Virus record (IMG/VR): IMGVR_UViG_2537562012_000007
Span: 1 to 40,599 of that record
Length of the DNA stretch: 40,599 nt
Reading direction: 5' to 3' (one strand)
From: a virus
Lineage: Duplodnaviria; Heunggongvirae; Uroviricota; Caudoviricetes
Numbering within the stretch: the first letter of the stretch is position 1; every line of letters starts with the position of its first letter. Below, in pieces: positions 6,352 to 13,081 of the stretch. The translations under genes were made by a program, and so were the position numbers. The notes under the pieces were generated by a model. It was not told the origin of the DNA. It made no database searches and worked only from the letters and a program-made list of their open reading frames with translations.

Positions 6352-6990
6352 TTAAATATCTTGTTGAATTTTAAAGCATACGCCCAATATGCAAGATAGA
6401 TCATCCAGCATAATTGAAGGGTAGCGAGGATTCGTGGGGACTAAAAGAATATCCGGCCCTTCTATCTCCAGTTTACGAATGACAGGTGTTGTGGTCCCTT
6501 TGGGTAAGGCAAGGACAATATTTCCTGGTTGTACGGTTCGATCGGGATCAACAAAAACTGTTGAACCATTTGGGATGGAAACTCCCCCACCAGATGTTGA
6601 CATACTGTCACTCTCTAGAACAACTGCAAAGGTATTGGCCGGGATTTCTCCGACAAGCTGCACACAAGAGGTTATTGAGGAATTTTTCATATAATCACTC
6701 CAGCTTGCTGCCTGCTGAAGTGATAGTAGCGGAACCGTTTTTATCGGCGGTAAAGATAGATCAAGCGAATCACCTGTATTTAACTCTCCTCCATTAAGAA
6801 GCCAATTTTCGTTTACTTTCAATATCTTTGCCAGTGAACTTATGTAACGCGAGGACGGCGCTCCTCCACCGTTCATCCATTGACTTACGGAGCCTTTTGA
6901 TGCGCCAGTGGCATTGACAAGGTCTTTGCCTTTCAGGTTTAGCGCATGCATACGTTGGGTTATGCGTTCAGATATTGTTTGCTTGCTCAT
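6352..6990 (-). CDS. cI-like prophage repressor (XRE-type HTH plus LexA/S24 autopeptidase domain)
   Basis: 212 aa; N-terminal HTH (GASKGSVSQWMNGGGAPSS), C-terminal S24-like region with ESDSM serine motif; no SD sequence before the ATG at 6990, consistent with a leaderless PRM-type transcript; divergent from the cro-like gene. Confidence 0.85.
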   Translation of the reverse strand: MSKQTISERITQRMHALNLKGKDLVNATGASKGSVSQWMNGGGAPSSRYISSLAKILKVNENWLLNGGELNTGDSLDLSLPPIKTVPLLSLQQAASWSDYMKNSSITSCVQLVGEIPANTFAVVLESDSMSTSGGGVSIPNGSTVFVDPDRTVQPGNIVLALPKGTTTPVIRKLEIEGPDILLVPTNPRYPSIMLDDLSCILGVCFKIQQDI

Positions 6991-7081
6991 GTTTTGATTT
7001 TAAAACACAGATGGTTTTGTTTCTTGACTTTCTTTGGTTTTGATTATTAAACTTTTGGCGTTCAGTTTTATGGAGCGACTC

Positions 7082-7324
7082 ATGAAAAAATCAGAAGTAT
7101 TAGGCTATTTTGGCGGAGTTGTTAAAACAGCCGCAGCTCTAGGAACGTCAAAAACCACAGTCAGCATGTGGGGGGAAGAGGTTCCGTGGAAATGGGCGTT
7201 GCTAATTCAGGCAGTCACTGCCGGGGCGCTCAAATATGAGTTACACATACCGACGGTTGTCATTCCCGGTTCTGATCATAATCCGCCTTCTAACCAAGGG
7301 GGGATTCATGAAAATCAAGCATGA
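7082..7324 (+). CDS. Cro/DicC-like small DNA-binding protein
   Basis: MKKSEVLGYFGG...TAAALGTSKTTVSMWGEEVP, resembles P22-type Cro; GGAG RBS; first gene of the rightward operon opposite the repressor. Confidence 0.7.
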   Translation: MKKSEVLGYFGGVVKTAAALGTSKTTVSMWGEEVPWKWALLIQAVTAGALKYELHIPTVVIPGSDHNPPSNQGGIHENQA

Positions 7325-7733
7325 ACACATCCGCATGGCGATGAATGCCTGGGCGCGTCCTGATGGCGAAAAAGTTCCAGCAGCTGGAATAACCCAGGCT
7401 TATTTTGAGTTGGGTATGACGTTTCCTGAACTGTATGACGACAGCCATCCGGAAGCCCTGGCTCGCAATACCCAGAAAATTTTCCGCTGGGTAGAGAAAG
7501 ACACCCCTGATGCAGTTGAAAAAATTCAGGCGTTGTTACCAGCGATCGAAAAAGCAATGCCACCTCTGCTGGTGGCCCGAATGCGCAGCCACAGTTCAGC
7601 CTATTTTCGGGAGCTGGTGGAGACGCGGGAACGACTGGTGAGAGACGCTGATGATTTTGTCGCAGTGGCGATCGCTGGTTTCAACCAGATGAATCGTGGT
7701 GGCCCTGCAGGAAATATTGTGGCTGTGCATTGA
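7308..7733 (+). CDS. YdaT-like protein (cII position)
   Basis: Starts MKIKHEHI like Rac YdaT as I recall it; GGGGGG RBS; sits between cro-like and the replication gene. Confidence 0.65.
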   Translation: MKIKHEHIRMAMNAWARPDGEKVPAAGITQAYFELGMTFPELYDDSHPEALARNTQKIFRWVEKDTPDAVEKIQALLPAIEKAMPPLLVARMRSHSSAYFRELVETRERLVRDADDFVAVAIAGFNQMNRGGPAGNIVAVH

Positions 7734-7804
7734 CTCGCAATATTCATACCGGATCACTTCCGGCAATTTGTGAGTAAAAAGATTCGGTATCAAAAGAGGT
7801 GAGT

Positions 7805-8875
7805 ATGGCTAACGCCTGGCTCAGATTATGGCATGACATGCCAAATGACCCTAAGTGGCGAACAATTGCCAGGGTGTCAGGGCAGCCAATTGCAACAGTG
7901 ATGGCAGTGTATATCCACCTCCTGGTGAGCGCGTCACGAAATGTCACGCGAGGTCACATTGATGTCACGACAGAAGATTTGGCAAGTGCGCTCGACGTGA
8001 CAGAAGAGGTAATTGATTCAATTTTGCAGACGATGCAGGGGCGGGTACTTGATGGTGATTTAATCACTGGATGGGAAAAACGCCAGGTGCTGAAAGAGGA
8101 CAACGGCAATATTTCGCAAACCGCAAAATCTCCGGCAGAGCGCAAGAGGGCGCAGCGAGAGAGGGAAAGAAAGCGGGAACAAAATGGCGATTGTCACGGC
8201 GAGTCACGAAATGTCACGCACATGTCACGACGAGTCACGACAGATAAAGATACAGATAAAGATACAGATCAAGAAGATCAAAACACTATGGTCCATGGCG
8301 TAAAAAACGCCACGAACCAGGCAGGGGATGTTCAGACCGTCACTCCTGGCCAGCCCGCAGGCACGACACCGGAAGCCGATTCAGCGTATGCGCTGAAAGC
8401 CGATTCGGGCGCTGTGCAGCAGGTGATGACCGCAAGGCAGGAGCAATCACACCAACTTCAGCAGCCTGAAGCCGATTCCGCCATTCAGCGGGAAGCCGAT
8501 CGGGTAGTCCCGGAAAACACCGGGCAGCCTGTGGGACGAGTGGATTATCCTGATGTGTTCGAACAGGTCTGGCGGGAATACCCGTTGCGTGCCGGGGCAA
8601 ACCCGAAGAAATCCGCTTTCAGTGCCTGGAAGGCCAGATTACGCGAGGGGGTGCCACCAGAGGCCATGCTGGATGGCGTGAGGCGTTACGCAAGATACTT
8701 GGCGGCTACCGGGAAAACGGGAACGGAATTTGTTCAGCGAGCGACGACGTTTTTTGGACCGGACCGGAATTTTGAGAACCCCTGGTTGCTCCCGGTAAGC
8801 GGCACGAACAACCAGCGTTGTGTGAATCATATTTCTGAACCGGATAACGAAATTCCGCCGGGCTTCAGGGGGTAA
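7805..8875 (+). CDS. Replication initiator, O-like / replisome-organiser N-terminal domain
   Basis: N-terminus MANAWLRLWHDMPNDPKWRTIARV...; the gene body contains iteron-like GTCACG repeats (see repeat features); AGAGG RBS 5 nt upstream of the ATG at 7805. Confidence 0.7.
   Translation: MANAWLRLWHDMPNDPKWRTIARVSGQPIATVMAVYIHLLVSASRNVTRGHIDVTTEDLASALDVTEEVIDSILQTMQGRVLDGDLITGWEKRQVLKEDNGNISQTAKSPAERKRAQRERERKREQNGDCHGESRNVTHMSRRVTTDKDTDKDTDQEDQNTMVHGVKNATNQAGDVQTVTPGQPAGTTPEADSAYALKADSGAVQQVMTARQEQSHQLQQPEADSAIQREADRVVPENTGQPVGRVDYPDVFEQVWREYPLRAGANPKKSAFSAWKARLREGVPPEAMLDGVRRYARYLAATGKTGTEFVQRATTFFGPDRNFENPWLLPVSGTNNQRCVNHISEPDNEIPPGFRG
7931..8006. repeat. Iteron cluster 1 inside the replication gene (GTCACGA / TGTCACG units)
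   Basis: GCGTCACGAAATGTCACGCGAGGTCACATTGATGTCACGACAGAAG ... CGACGTGACAGAAG. Confidence 0.6.
8191..8267. repeat. Iteron cluster 2 inside the replication gene, plus a GATAAAGATACA direct repeat
   Basis: TTGTCACGGCGAGTCACGAAATGTCACGCACATGTCACGACGAGTCACGACAGATAAAGATACAGATAAAGATACAGATC; the 15-mer TCACGAAATGTCACG is shared with cluster 1. Confidence 0.6.
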
Positions 8876-8915
8876 GTGTTAATTTCTGGTCATGAGGTAA
8901 TTTTCAGGAGGGCTT

Positions 8916-9371
8916 GTGGCAAAAGTTTTTACACAAGAAGAGCGGGAAAAAATTAAAGGGCAGGTTGTTGAACTCGTACGCCAGAGTGGGCGCGAGACGT
9001 TACGACAACTGGAAACTAAAACTGGGGCAACAAGATATCTGATGAGCGTTCTGGCCAGAGAGCTGGTTGCCAGTGGCGATGTATACAACTCTGGTTACGG
9101 GTTATTCCCGTCTGAACAGGCGCGTAAGGACTGGCAAAATGCCCGTAAAAAGCTCTCAAGGGCAAAGCTGAAGAAACCATCTGCGGTTGATCCGGACCTT
9201 ATCTGGTCATTACCTGACGGAGAAATACGTCGCTACGACAGGCGTCAGAACATAATCTGTCGCGAGTGCCGGAAGAGTGAAGCTATGCAGCGTGTACTGG
9301 CATTTTACCAGAATGGTTTTCGAGAGACATTCGGTGAACAGGTTGTGCATGAGGGAAATCATGGCGCTTAG
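8916..9371 (+). CDS. Hypothetical protein (151 aa), replication module
   Basis: GTG start with AGGAGG 5 nt upstream; no recognisable domain. Confidence 0.5.
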   Translation: MAKVFTQEEREKIKGQVVELVRQSGRETLRQLETKTGATRYLMSVLARELVASGDVYNSGYGLFPSEQARKDWQNARKKLSRAKLKKPSAVDPDLIWSLPDGEIRRYDRRQNIICRECRKSEAMQRVLAFYQNGFRETFGEQVVHEGNHGA

Positions 9372-9799
9372 GCAATTGTGTAGACGCGTTGACGGTCGAA
9401 AGCATAGGAGGGTTGATTGATCGTTCTAGTTATGCTGTCAGAGCGAAAGCGCAGGAACTGGGTATCAATAGGATGTTAAGAGGGGGGGGGGGTATAACCA
9501 ATCAAAAAAACATCCGCAAAGCGATATTGAGCTAGTGCGGAAGCTTCATCAGTGTGGAGTTCCCCGCCGTGATATCGCTGTAAAACGCGAAATGTCCTTG
9601 GGCATGATTAATCAGTACGTTTATTTCGACAGGAGAGCGCATGAAGTTTGACATCTAGACAACTGGGGGAGCGCTGAAAACGTTCTTAATTGATGTTGGA
9701 TTCGCTTTACATACTGAACTGTTTGGCTGAAAGACACGGTAGTATCACCAATCAAGGTGCTTTTGATAAACGCTTGTGTGTTTGTTTTTTAATCCATTG

Positions 9800-9828
9800 T
9801 TGACAACTAGGTTAGTTTTCCATATCAT
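9800..9828 (+). promoter_or_regulatory. Sigma70-like promoter upstream of the ParA-like gene
   Basis: TTGACA (9800-9805), 17 bp spacer, TATCAT (9823-9828). Confidence 0.5.
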
Positions 9829-9858
9829 CAATAAAAGTGTAAAACTAATGGTGGCGAT

Positions 9859-10905
9859 ATGACTAGTGAATCAAATGTTAATGCTCTGATAGAGCGTCAA
9901 TTCGAAGTTGCTGACGGTAATGTAAGAAGTCTTAATTTGCCGAAATATGATAAATATACAGTATGTAATTTACGGGGAGGCATTGGTAAGACATCTTTAA
10001 CTTTTAATCTGTCATATTTGGCGGATAACGCATTAATCGTGGATACGTGCCCGCAAGGAAATTTATCATATTTTTTTGACAATAATTATGCATCTTCGTC
10101 TAGCACAACTGCAAATGACCTCTTAATGCCTTATTTTGTTCCAGGGCTTGGATTTGCAACGCGTGCTGCAAAGCTAGTATCATCAACTAATGCTTGGTTT
10201 GCGGGCAAGAATAACTATTTTATTCAATCTGATAGTCAACTTTATCTTCTACCTACGCAAATGGCGAATGCTCTGGCTCAAGCCAGAACAATTTCTGGGG
10301 CTACTCAGCAGGTTGTTATTGATACAATTCTTTTTTCTCTGAAGAAAGAAATAGCCAGAGAAATGGTTGAAACTGGTACTACAAAAGCGTTAATTGATAC
10401 ATCACCTTTTTTCTCTGGAGCGACGCATTTATCTTGGCATGCAACAGATGCTTTAATAGTTCCAGTGAGGACAGATCAGCAATCGATTAATTCATTAAGA
10501 TTACTTATTGATACTCTGACTAAACCAACATCAGAATTTAGAAAGATAATGCCGTCTGATGGCCATACACCAAAAATTCAGATGGTGGTTATTACCCATT
10601 GCGGATGGTCAACAGTGGCAGGAGCAAGGAATAAACCAAATCAACAGACAAAAATGTACATCGAAGCTGTAAGAGAGGTAATTCGACAAAATATTAGTAA
10701 TTTTACAACAGATGATCCTAATAATCACATTGTGATTCTTGATGATTTTCTGGGTAGTGGCAGAATGTCAAGTGCTAAGTCTAAACCATTAGAGTTGTTA
10801 AATCCAGGAGATGCAATGACTGTGAATAGAGTTAGGACATCCGTGAATTTATCTGTTAACAAAATAAAAAATGAATTAAAGTTCATTCACAACTCCATAT
10901 GGTAA
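9859..10905 (+). CDS. ParA/MinD-family P-loop ATPase with C-terminal extension
   Basis: Deviant Walker A CNLRGGIGKTSLT followed by DTCPQGN, as in ParA/Soj; 348 aa; markedly AT-rich codon usage by eye relative to the phage backbone. Confidence 0.75.
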   Translation: MTSESNVNALIERQFEVADGNVRSLNLPKYDKYTVCNLRGGIGKTSLTFNLSYLADNALIVDTCPQGNLSYFFDNNYASSSSTTANDLLMPYFVPGLGFATRAAKLVSSTNAWFAGKNNYFIQSDSQLYLLPTQMANALAQARTISGATQQVVIDTILFSLKKEIAREMVETGTTKALIDTSPFFSGATHLSWHATDALIVPVRTDQQSINSLRLLIDTLTKPTSEFRKIMPSDGHTPKIQMVVITHCGWSTVAGARNKPNQQTKMYIEAVREVIRQNISNFTTDDPNNHIVILDDFLGSGRMSSAKSKPLELLNPGDAMTVNRVRTSVNLSVNKIKNELKFIHNSIW

Positions 10906-11250
10906 ATGACATTTTATTTGAATAATCTGGATTGATAATCATTGTTACATTAATTGTTATTAATTCTAAATAATCCTATCGTTCTTCAGGATGAGATAAT
11001 TTATATTTATTTGTGTTGTGATTTTTTGAATTTATTTAGGTTTATGAACTGTTTTAGATGAAATGAATCATGAATACGAAATTGTTGCGGTACTGATAAC
11101 GAGGAAAGACCTCTGCGAGGTACGAATCCGAACCGGCCAGACGGAGGTCGCTGTCTTCACAGCTTACGAACCTGAGGAGTAAGAGACCAGGCGAGGGAGA
11201 AATCCCTCGCCACCTCTGATGTGTCAGGCATCCTCAACGCACCCGCACTT

Positions 11251-11273
11251 AACCCGCTTCGGCGGGGTTTTTA
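11251..11273 (+). terminator. Rho-independent terminator
   Basis: ACCCGC-TTCG-GCGGG stem-loop followed by a T-run. Confidence 0.6.
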
Positions 11274-11355
11274 TTGGTTGACAAAATTATGAATATGCAC
11301 CAATATCTTGGTTGACAAAAGTCGTTTTTTGCACGGATTAGGCGGAGAAGTGTCT

Positions 11356-11949
11356 ATGCAGAACCATCCATTCCCTTGGGAGTTCTTTCCTGAGTTAACA
11401 GAGGAGCGTTTAACCATTATAGCTGAGGAGTTGCTCAGGATACAGGATATTACTCATGAGTTATTGTCATCGCCCTATGATGATAATTACACTCGTGGTG
11501 GTTGTACATTTGGGCGTCAGCGGCAGGCGTTGCTACAAATGTGCGTACGAAAGACATATGACTGGTTAAGACTACTTAATCCTGGCATGGATCTTACGTT
11601 TTCAATTGGGAATGTCCCTATTCGTTTCTTTACTGATGACGCAGATAACCCCAAGAAACGCGGTTTTTTCAAAAGAAATGATGCTGATCGACTCTTCGAG
11701 TCAGAGGAGACTACTCCAACTATGCATCGCTTTGTGGTTGAAAAGCCTGAATTTGAAGGCGAGGGTGGTAGAGTCATTTTTAATGGCTATAACGTGTTTG
11801 GTGAGATCGTGTCAACTTGGACATATGGTGCGGACCGTGTTGTTATGCTGAACTCTGTCGATGATGTACCTCCAGCACCGGTACCTATCGAACTAGAACC
11901 TATCAGTGCGTCTAAGACTGAGAAGGAAAAGAAACAAAATAGCAAATAG
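11356..11949 (+). CDS. Hypothetical acidic protein (197 aa), accessory cassette
   Basis: ATG at 11356 with GGAG RBS; the TTG at 11308 used by the track lies inside a promoter-like repeat; no recognisable domain. Confidence 0.6.
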   Translation: MQNHPFPWEFFPELTEERLTIIAEELLRIQDITHELLSSPYDDNYTRGGCTFGRQRQALLQMCVRKTYDWLRLLNPGMDLTFSIGNVPIRFFTDDADNPKKRGFFKRNDADRLFESEETTPTMHRFVVEKPEFEGEGGRVIFNGYNVFGEIVSTWTYGADRVVMLNSVDDVPPAPVPIELEPISASKTEKEKKQNSK

Positions 11950-11959
11950 TGGGTGAAAT

Positions 11960-13081
11960 GTGTTTAACGGTACTAATTTAAGACTTGCTCGTCTGTATCA
12001 CGAGCTATCTCTGGAGCAGGTTGCTGAGAAGGTTGAAAAAACACGCCAGTATGTACAGCGACTGGAGTCTGGTTCAGCTACTCCATCCCCAGAGCTTATA
12101 AATAAATTAGCCGAGGTTTTGCGCGTGAAGCCCGCCTTTTTCGAAGGGCAGGAACATTCTCCTGTTAATGAAGAGATTGTACATTTTCGTAAACGCGCCT
12201 CGACAAGGATGTCAACGAAGCTATCAACACTCGCTAAGGCTGAGTTTTATCGTCGTTTTATTGATGTATTTGAAGATAACCTTAATTTGTCACCTGTTCG
12301 ATTTCCTGAATTTCGTGTCCATACACAAGAAGATATCGAGCGAGCGGCAGAAAAATGTCGTATTGAGTGGGGCTTAGGCTTTGGCCCAATTGAAAATATG
12401 ACTCGCCTTGCCGAGAAACTTGGGGCGTTTGTTACTTCATTTGACTCCGTTTCGGATGAAGTAGATGCACTGTCTGTTCCTCTACGAAGGCCTTTTATTG
12501 TTCGAAATACAGCTAAAAATTCACCTTGTAGGCAACGCTTTGATATTGCTCATGAGGTTGCCCATTTGATTCTTCATGAAGGAATTTCTACTGGGGATAG
12601 ATTAACTGAATCCCAGGCAAACCGTTTTGCCTCTGCTCTGTTGCTTCCCAGAACGTCGATGGCGAAATATTTTCCAAGACCTGTGGGGGGGAGGATAAAT
12701 TGGCAGGGACTAAGCCAATTTAAGTTGACATGGAAAGTAAGTAAGGCTGCCATTGTTTACAGGGCTCATCAATTAGGACTTTTGACTGATGAGCAGTACA
12801 GAACTGCATTTATGGGGTTGAAACGGAAAGGGGAAGCTATTGATGAAAAAGAAGATTATCTAATCCCTCATGAGCGTCCTGAGTTATTCCGTCGGGCTTT
12901 ATCGTTTTTATTTGAAGAGTTAGGATACGACCCACAGCGTATAGCTGATGAAATGGATATAGAAGTGGACATTTTTTATGAGTTAGTAGGAGATGATCTT
13001 CCTGCGGTTCATGAACTGCCAGGAAGTGGTGATGTTGTTTCACTACAATCTTACCGAACTCTTAGAGGCAAAATTCACTAG
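11960..13081 (+). CDS. XRE-family HTH fused to ImmA/IrrE-type zinc metallopeptidase
   Basis: N-terminal HTH (LRLARLYHELSLEQVAEKVEKTRQYVQRLESG), central HEVAHLILHE (HExxH) motif typical of ImmA/IrrE (COG2856-like); GTG start. Confidence 0.8.
   Translation: MFNGTNLRLARLYHELSLEQVAEKVEKTRQYVQRLESGSATPSPELINKLAEVLRVKPAFFEGQEHSPVNEEIVHFRKRASTRMSTKLSTLAKAEFYRRFIDVFEDNLNLSPVRFPEFRVHTQEDIERAAEKCRIEWGLGFGPIENMTRLAEKLGAFVTSFDSVSDEVDALSVPLRRPFIVRNTAKNSPCRQRFDIAHEVAHLILHEGISTGDRLTESQANRFASALLLPRTSMAKYFPRPVGGRINWQGLSQFKLTWKVSKAAIVYRAHQLGLLTDEQYRTAFMGLKRKGEAIDEKEDYLIPHERPELFRRALSFLFEELGYDPQRIADEMDIEVDIFYELVGDDLPAVHELPGSGDVVSLQSYRTLRGKIH

Follow-up and report, generated by a model that had tools for sequence, protein, structure and literature searches.

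Repeats beside an A+T-rich element inside an initiator gene are a classic design of replication origins. In phage lambda, the initiator-binding repeats are found in the middle of the initiator gene, and the A+T-rich tract that comes directly after them is unwound (PMC7466680). In SPP1, G38P binds direct repeats in its own gene beside an A+T-rich unwinding element and recruits the loader and the helicase (PMC6316719), and the Rep boxes to which RepA_N initiators bind are located in the initiator genes themselves (PMC5703833). Here, the same design is found in a family other than lambda O, in the initiator gene (7805-8875, plus strand, 356 aa) of a lambdoid Escherichia coli prophage represented by IMG/VR record IMGVR_UViG_2537562012_000007 (positions 1 to 40,599; this whole stretch of DNA is referred to as the window). 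Most probably, vegetative (theta) replication of the phage starts from the segment 7933-8319, within the gene that codes for its initiator. This reading is supported by comparison and not by experiment, and the closest analogues of the locus are ori-lambda, oriL of SPP1 in gene 38 and the RepA_N origin of pSK41. A candidate origin at this place had been put forward in an initial annotation of the sequence, and it gains support from a conserved layout, frozen synonymous sites and repeats that travel with the N-terminal domain of the initiator.

As in lambda, the putative origin lies within the initiator gene with the repeats placed before the A+T-rich tract, and the genetic context consists of a repressor, cro, a cII-like gene and the initiator. 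As in lambda O, the origin region forms the border between two halves of the protein, the N-terminal one specific to the origin and the C-terminal one exchangeable, and natural variation in iteron number alters the length of the protein, as it does in lambda and the Stx variants (with six iterons). Unlike lambda, the initiator is not a homologue of lambda O and gives no Pfam match to Phage_rep_O (E up to 10), the repeats are 6-bp direct cores every 10-11 bp instead of internally dyad-symmetric units of 19 bp, the stretch that codes for the DNA-binding domain contains a second cluster, and no P-like gene stands beside the initiator in the window. The O-like protein of the initial annotation holds as an analogy but not as a family assignment, the N-terminal domain having a modelled fold similar to DnaD-NTD and RepA_N, and the units are short, phased direct hexamers instead of dyad iterons.

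Like SPP1 oriL and the lactococcal replisome organizers, this locus combines direct repeats and an A+T-rich element in the initiator's own gene, and the protein carries replisome-organizer names in NCBI ('phage replisome organizer') and PHROG. The whole Phage_rep_org_N model (PF09681) is aligned, in a weak match (E 0.1; 12.8 bits, where the cut-off is 23.3). SPP1 differs in having a distant second origin, oriR, whereas here both clusters are found within 300 bp; in addition, unlike SPP1 and the lactococcal phages, the hosts are Proteobacteria and the partner genes are variable. With the RepA_N initiators the protein shares a predicted winged-helix N-terminal domain of the DnaD-NTD fold, a putative origin in the central, poorly conserved linker, in which natural in-frame deletions occur in the present family, and a modular C-terminal domain; the same N-/C-terminal modularity was observed in a pSK41/pPR9 Rep chimera (PMC5703833). 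The iterons of RepA_N origins are usually semi-palindromes arranged about a poly-A tract, and the family is reportedly rare in Gram-negatives (PMC7145576). The present family, in contrast, is abundant in proteobacterial prophages, its units are simple direct hexamers, one of its clusters overlaps the coding region of the N-terminal domain, and no match to PF06970 (RepA_N) is listed at E values up to 10. Two sets of one short repeat served by one initiator are also known from phage P4 (ori and crr) and from plasmids P1, F and RK2, but there the two sets are separated by kilobases or stand on either side of the rep gene, and the initiators are unrelated (the primase-helicase alpha and Rep_3 proteins; PF01051, the Rep_3 family, gives no match to the present initiator). 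Rac YdaU is presumably a DUF1376 protein and hence belongs to a different family.

Repeat Clusters and the Adjacent A+T-Rich Run

The repeats are copies of the hexamer GTCACG arranged in two clusters, both inside the open reading frame (ORF) 7805-8875 and with ~230 bp between the arrays. Cluster 1 (7933-7969, plus strand) comprises units at 7933, 7943, 7953 and 7964, the third being the degenerate GTCACA, at a spacing of 10, 10 and 11 bp; an inverted unit (7996-8001, minus strand, read as CGTGAC on the plus strand) is located 26 bp to its right. Cluster 2 (8193-8239, plus strand) comprises five units at 8193, 8203, 8213, 8224 and 8234, spaced by 10, 10, 11 and 10 bp, and is described by Tandem Repeats Finder as 4.9 copies of a 10-nt period. 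Nine GTCACG and one GTCACA are thus found in 7933-8239, compared with 14 GTCACG across the other 40 kb, and 9 of the 23 matches in the window (both strands) are packed into 307 bp where ~0.17 would be expected (Poisson P ~3e-13, before correction for ~130 such intervals). Because the count for the whole window is itself ordinary (23 compared with 18.6 expected), the signal is the clustering, and no other repeat cluster is present in the 40.6-kb window. The groups of GTCACG-containing units placed at 7931-8006 and 8191-8245 by the initial annotation are therefore seen and are clustered beyond chance. The 15-mer TCACGAAATGTCACG reported there as shared by both is present but extends to a 17-mer, GTCACGAAATGTCACGC, at 7933 and 8203, and the direct repeat GATAAAGATACA assigned to 8244-8267 is found one base to the left, at 8243-8266; that description did not mention the strict phasing, nor the GTCACA and the inverted unit at cluster 1, nor the two GATC sites and the hairpin described below.

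The last unit of cluster 2 is followed by an A+T-rich run with a purine-rich top strand (8240-8285), which consists of 2.9 copies of ACAGATAAAGAT (8240-8274), the GATAAAGATACA repeat being part of them, and then of CAAGAAGATCAAAAC. The 40 bp following the last iteron are 70% A+T compared with 46% for the gene, and by analogy with the described origins the run is presumed to be the DNA-unwinding element. At its right end there are two GATC (Dam) sites (8267-8270 and 8276-8279), two of the three in the gene. Among the homologues, a GATC in the A-run zone is found in 10 of 14 from Enterobacterales and in 3 of 29 others (Fisher 1e-4, for lineages that are not independent), and the pair hints at an involvement of Dam and SeqA as at oriC and the P1 origin. 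Directly to the right of the run is an inverted repeat with 13-nt arms and a 5-nt loop (8289-8319), predicted to fold as a DNA hairpin with z scores of -4.9 on the top strand and -6.3 on the bottom strand (none of 200 shuffles was equally stable); on the minus strand a T-rich tail comes next, with a terminator-like score. Equivalent hairpins exist in enteric homologues (z -3.9 to -6.6) and are weaker elsewhere, where the shuffling test on distant homologues is mostly not significant, and the enteric hairpin region codes for a conserved peptide, LVHGEKxAS. The hairpin might serve as a signal for the primosome or for primase, terminate antisense transcription or be bound by a dimeric protein.

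Conservation in Homologous Initiator Genes

The layout is kept in ~45 homologues of the gene, whose hosts extend from E. coli to Pseudomonas, Bordetella and Sphingomonas. An absence of the repeats from homologous initiator genes, which the initial annotation had named as evidence against its reading, is therefore not what is seen. Over 46 genes, 309 copies of the motif are found within two zones compared with 6 in the remainder of the genes, and the spacing between units is 10 or 11 nt in 181 of 211 intervals. Cluster 1 has 2-6 units, the first at gene nt ~129-163 (129/139/149/160 in the canonical genes of the GTCACG class), and cluster 2 has 2-6 units at gene nt ~360-500, always just to the left of the A-run. 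A run of the AGATAAAGATA type was found in 43 genes, in 27 of which it begins at most 4 nt from the last unit, and three further genes have none within 30 nt; the 40 nt past the last unit are at least 65% A+T in 38 of the 46 homologues, whose genes vary from 32 to 62% A+T and include some of 65-68% G+C. The inverted unit is kept as CGTGAC or TGTGAC in many homologues. In the gene of locus L087, cluster 1 is longer by 21 bp, that is by two units with the frame kept, and cluster 2 has six units.

The core motif changes jointly in both clusters, being GTCACG, GTAACG or GAACGC. The GTCACG class is found in E. coli, Salmonella, Serratia, Pseudomonas, Bordetella, Chromobacterium, Acidovorax and others, the GTAACG class in loci L082-L084, Pantoea, Enterobacter, Marinobacter and Sphingomonas, and the (C)GAACGC class in Methylibium, Variovorax, Rhodoferax, Janthinobacterium, Collimonas and others. 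The genes on either side differ by locus, with DUF977, IstB/DnaC-like, lambda-P-like, DnaB-like helicase or DUF6475 genes downstream and YdaT-like genes, CII or unrelated ORFs upstream; the initiator is the only constant partner of the repeats across loci.

Selection on DNA Rather Than Protein

Because of the spacing of 10-11 nt, the units are read in three different frames (GC[G TCA CG]A, [GTC ACG] and G[GT CAC A]). In 23 GTCACG-class homologues of canonical layout, with gene G+C of 42-68%, the four-fold degenerate third positions have a mean entropy of 0.15 bit inside the hexamers (n=7) compared with 1.61 bit at the other conserved four-fold sites of that domain (n=25; Mann-Whitney p 9e-5). 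R49, whose codon lies between two units, is free at its third position (1.72 bit). V65 is encoded by GTG in all 20 of 20 sequences; it is the only frozen four-fold site that had not been assigned to a hexamer beforehand, and it belongs to the inverted unit. Among 40 distinct near-identical IMG/VR alleles there are 93 variable positions, one of which falls in the 60 core nucleotides. The repeats are located in segments of the protein that tolerate change (a low-confidence loop and a disordered linker, the indel-rich spots of the alignment), and units are gained as 21-bp pairs that keep the reading frame. Taken from such comparisons, these patterns indicate that the repeats are conserved as DNA, with selection acting on the DNA itself.

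The Initiator Protein and Its Modules

The initiator matches phrog_3729 'replication initiation protein' (E 7e-257), PHROG 'replisome organizer' families at E 7e-6 and 1e-4 and, over aa 128-356, phrog_1701 'DnaD-like helicase loader' (E 1e-61); Pfam gives no match above threshold, and a sequence search of solved structures with the family profile gave nothing. Its homologues begin with MANxWLRLWHDM. In an AlphaFold model of the whole protein, built from a 13-sequence alignment, aa 1-89 (7805-8071, plus strand) form a predicted winged helix, presumed to be the iteron binder, with helices and a beta hairpin at a predicted local distance difference test score (pLDDT) of 60-89; the modelled fold is similar to DnaD-NTD and to a RepA_N initiator, a likeness to be taken with moderate confidence. 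Cluster 1 codes for aa 43-55, the end of a helix and a low-confidence loop at 46-55. Residues 127-245 constitute a disordered, indel-rich linker (pLDDT below 50) whose coding region contains cluster 2 (aa 130-145), the A-run and the hairpin. Towards the C-terminus, a helical domain (aa 246-317; 8540-8755, plus strand), modelled by AF2 from a 23-sequence alignment with three main helices and a pLDDT of 77, is presumed to contact the helicase or primosome. NCBIfam gives a weak 24-residue match to the tail of DnaT, far under the cut-off; a DnaT identity was rejected, and the Pfam DnaT domain of the relatives sits in the other C-terminal module.

Gene comparison shows the N-terminal domain, both clusters and the A-run recombining as one block onto unrelated C-terminal domains. 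P0057 (L145, from O157-type prophages) shares ~90% identity with the window gene from nt 1 to ~470, a segment that includes this block, and past nt ~470 has an unrelated C-terminus with a Pfam DnaT domain, followed by a lambda-P-like gene. In the initiator of Shigella Stx phage 75/02 (L146 1894-2982), only the C-terminal 160 residues are common; the N-terminus is different and the gene has no GTCACG repeats. The linker of the 75/02 protein was observed to carry (GAACAG)x5, read as EQEQEQ, and then the same palindrome coding for LVHGEK.

Natural alleles with shorter linkers were also observed. P0019 (L148 1501-2409, 302 aa) has an in-frame deletion of 162 bp, equivalent to ~8208-8369 of the window, and was read on 7 contigs, the carriers including one of 5.1 Mb; it loses iterons 3-5 and part of iteron 2 of cluster 2, the A-run and the hairpin, and keeps the N- and C-terminal domains. 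This has the appearance of a deleted origin and would mark the prophage as replication-dead. A direct repeat of 36 bp, imperfect, is found at 8369-8404 and 8465-8500, 96 bp apart (PEADSAYALKAD and PEADSAIQREAD), and the 324-aa alleles (P0004 and others) lack exactly the 32 residues between its copies, which looks like a deletion by recombination between the 36-bp repeats.

Proposed Mechanism and Alternative Explanations

Binding, looping, melting and helicase recruitment are inferred from lambda O at ori-lambda, G38P at SPP1 oriL and pSK41 Rep. Upon derepression, the 356-aa initiator would be made from the rightward early operon and its N-terminal winged-helix domain would bind the GTCACG hexamers. 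Since the spacing of 10-11 bp places the sites on the same face of the helix, the bound initiators would form head-to-tail arrays on cluster 2 and cluster 1, and the two arrays, ~230 bp apart, may join by looping. The resulting strain would open the adjacent 46-bp A+T-rich run, and the C-terminal domain would then bring in the replicative helicase. Because neither a loader nor a helicase gene is next to the initiator in this phage, host DnaB and DnaC are presumed to serve, while in the relatives this step would go through a phage-encoded DnaC-like, P-like or DnaB-like protein.

Several points weigh against the origin reading. A survey of open-access full text found no experimental binding, melting or initiation data for any relative. 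The A+T-rich run is short, with 46 bp at 70% A+T. Between the initiator and 13081 (8916-13081) there is no helicase or helicase-loader gene, and a fold search of the C-terminal domain against the PDB found no structural relative; helicase recruitment stays an analogy or a guess because no such gene adjoins the initiator and the domain has no recognisable fold. The GC skew was rejected as an origin indicator: in the window profile its minimum lies at ~5-7 kb, where the direction of transcription switches, and a turn that coincides with divergent transcription is uninformative. Finally, a neighbour-joining tree of the N-terminal domain (42 homologues, aa 5-100 with the iteron-encoded residues masked, 75 columns), itself weak, does not separate the GTCACG, GTAACG and GAACGC classes, contrary to what simple co-evolution of domain and iterons would lead one to expect; mean identity is 0.67-0.72 within iteron classes and 0.65-0.67 between them, and a search for residues that discriminate the classes gave no clean signal. 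The unsorted tree may reflect its weakness, repeated switches of class or a specificity that resides in the iteron-encoded loop. It is doubtful, though conceivable, that this loop (aa 44-56, NVTRGHIDVT) is part of the iteron-reading surface, with specificity and site written in the same nucleotides. If the loop did read the iterons, a change of hexamer would alter site and reader together, and for this reason the rest of the domain would be left unsorted by iteron class. In a related idea, cluster 1 would be a brake built into the gene, with the bound initiator stopping transcription through the part that codes for its DNA-binding domain.

The alternative closest to an origin is that the hexamers are initiator sites used mainly for control, either autoregulation in which transcription through the gene is blocked or copy-number control by pairing ('handcuffing'), with the start elsewhere or with cluster 2 and the A-run alone as the origin. 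It is an unlikely explanation, which would account for the two separate clusters and for the position of one of them in the stretch that codes for the DNA-binding domain, where an array of bound protein would obstruct RNA polymerase. Extra iteron sets are used for control by iteron plasmids. In lambda, only two iterons beside the A+T tract are needed in vitro (PMC7466680), in line with such a division of tasks. However, cluster 2 is always joined directly to an A+T-rich run, which is a hallmark of origins, the window offers no other repeat cluster, and the N-terminal domain is passed on together with both clusters and the A-run as a single block. A partial form, in which cluster 1 is regulatory, is compatible with an origin at 7933-8319.

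Phased direct repeats every 10-11 bp with a TGTCAC core also recall the boxes of response regulators, such as the Pho box with its TGTCA core and 11-bp spacing, and a YdaT-family gene is found upstream in all enteric loci examined. The repeats might therefore be sites for another protein, either a host factor of the OmpR/PhoB type or the YdaT/CII-like or DUF977 product. This is very improbable, given that distant loci keep the repeats despite different genes upstream and downstream, and that the repeats are always inside the initiator gene and move with its N-terminal domain. A host factor in particular is hard to reconcile with motif classes that differ among phages of related hosts (GTCACG and GTAACG both occur within Enterobacterales), while a single class spans hosts as distant as E. 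coli and Bordetella. Slightly harder still to accept is that the repeats have no function as DNA and are a low-complexity repeat of the protein or a slippage-prone stretch in a tolerant linker. Their location in a loop and a disordered linker, their variable copy number and the in-frame 12-bp repeat of the A-run (peptide TDKD TDKD) would agree with it, but the three frames give unrelated peptides (SR, VT and GH), synonymous positions are frozen across genes of 42 to 68% G+C, and the hexamer is kept where the protein sequence of the surrounding linker is not.

Prophage Context

The window begins with an integrase (1-1119) and has an S24/helix-turn-helix (HTH) repressor on the minus strand (6352-6990), a cro-like gene (7034-7324) and a YdaT/CII-like gene (7236-7733) before the initiator, whose ATG at 7805 is preceded by AGAGGTGA. 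Downstream are DUF977 (8916-9371), a ParA-like ATPase gene (9859-10905), an ORF without family match (11308-11949) and a gene for an HTH and ImmA/IrrE protein (11960-13081), with RusA and Q further right. The ParA-like gene is unexpected in a prophage that has an integrase. At the position that corresponds to 8916-13081, relatives have DnaC-like, lambda-P-like or DnaB-like genes; a lambda-P-like gene is adjacent to the initiator only in some of them (L086, L145), whereas the adjacent gene here is DUF977. A scan of 6800-9600 against Rfam gave no RNA family match, and a promoter scan gave no convincing internal promoter. The 1.2 kb of 7700-8900 are 97-99% identical to phages vB_EcoS-689R5, Evi and Tritos, where the ORF is labelled 'DNA replication protein O', 'Primosomal protein I' or 'N-terminal phage replisome organiser'; neither of the two records examined, those of Tritos and Evi, has an annotated origin feature.

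Distribution and Significance

The 430-bp segment around the putative origin (7900-8330) is found in 2036 of 5426 complete E. coli genomes; a single genome can have as many as four copies, and nearly all are chromosomal. Relatives are present in Salmonella, Shigella, O157-type prophages, Pseudomonas aeruginosa phages and many other Proteobacteria. The gene labels in public use are 'replication protein O', 'primosomal protein I' and 'hypothetical protein', and no origin annotation was found in the public records examined. Likewise, open-access full text on replisome organizers, GTCACG, Rac oriJ and non-lambdoid Stx regions yielded no published description of the origin, and the terms 'iteron', 'origin of replication' and 'direct repeat' do not appear in the paper on 'Eru' replication regions. 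A plasmid collection gave 11 matches, mostly to large plasmids and chromosome-size records, which are no independent proof of autonomous replication. Two of them are circular P. aeruginosa records of 50.9 kb, of which CP137943 (L147) was examined: its stretch carries the phage-type early genes S24 repressor, CII, NinB and NinG, and its initiator gene has 4+4 GTCACG units, a AGATAAAGATA run and a C-rich hairpin, with a DnaB-like helicase gene next to it.

Prophages of the same iteron specificity often share a cell, and one initiator might fire the origins of several co-resident prophages. The three specificity classes would allow predictions of which co-resident prophages can fire each other's origins. 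A known origin would be useful for annotation, would help to explain the in-situ amplification of neighbouring virulence genes and would permit replication-dead prophages, such as those with the P0019 allele, to be recognised. The system may also provide small replicons of defined specificity and compact, orthogonal pairs of origin and initiator. Finally, a DnaD/RepA_N-like initiator with the origin in its own gene, known from plasmids and phages of Firmicutes, would now be extended to a large group of prophages of Gram-negative bacteria.

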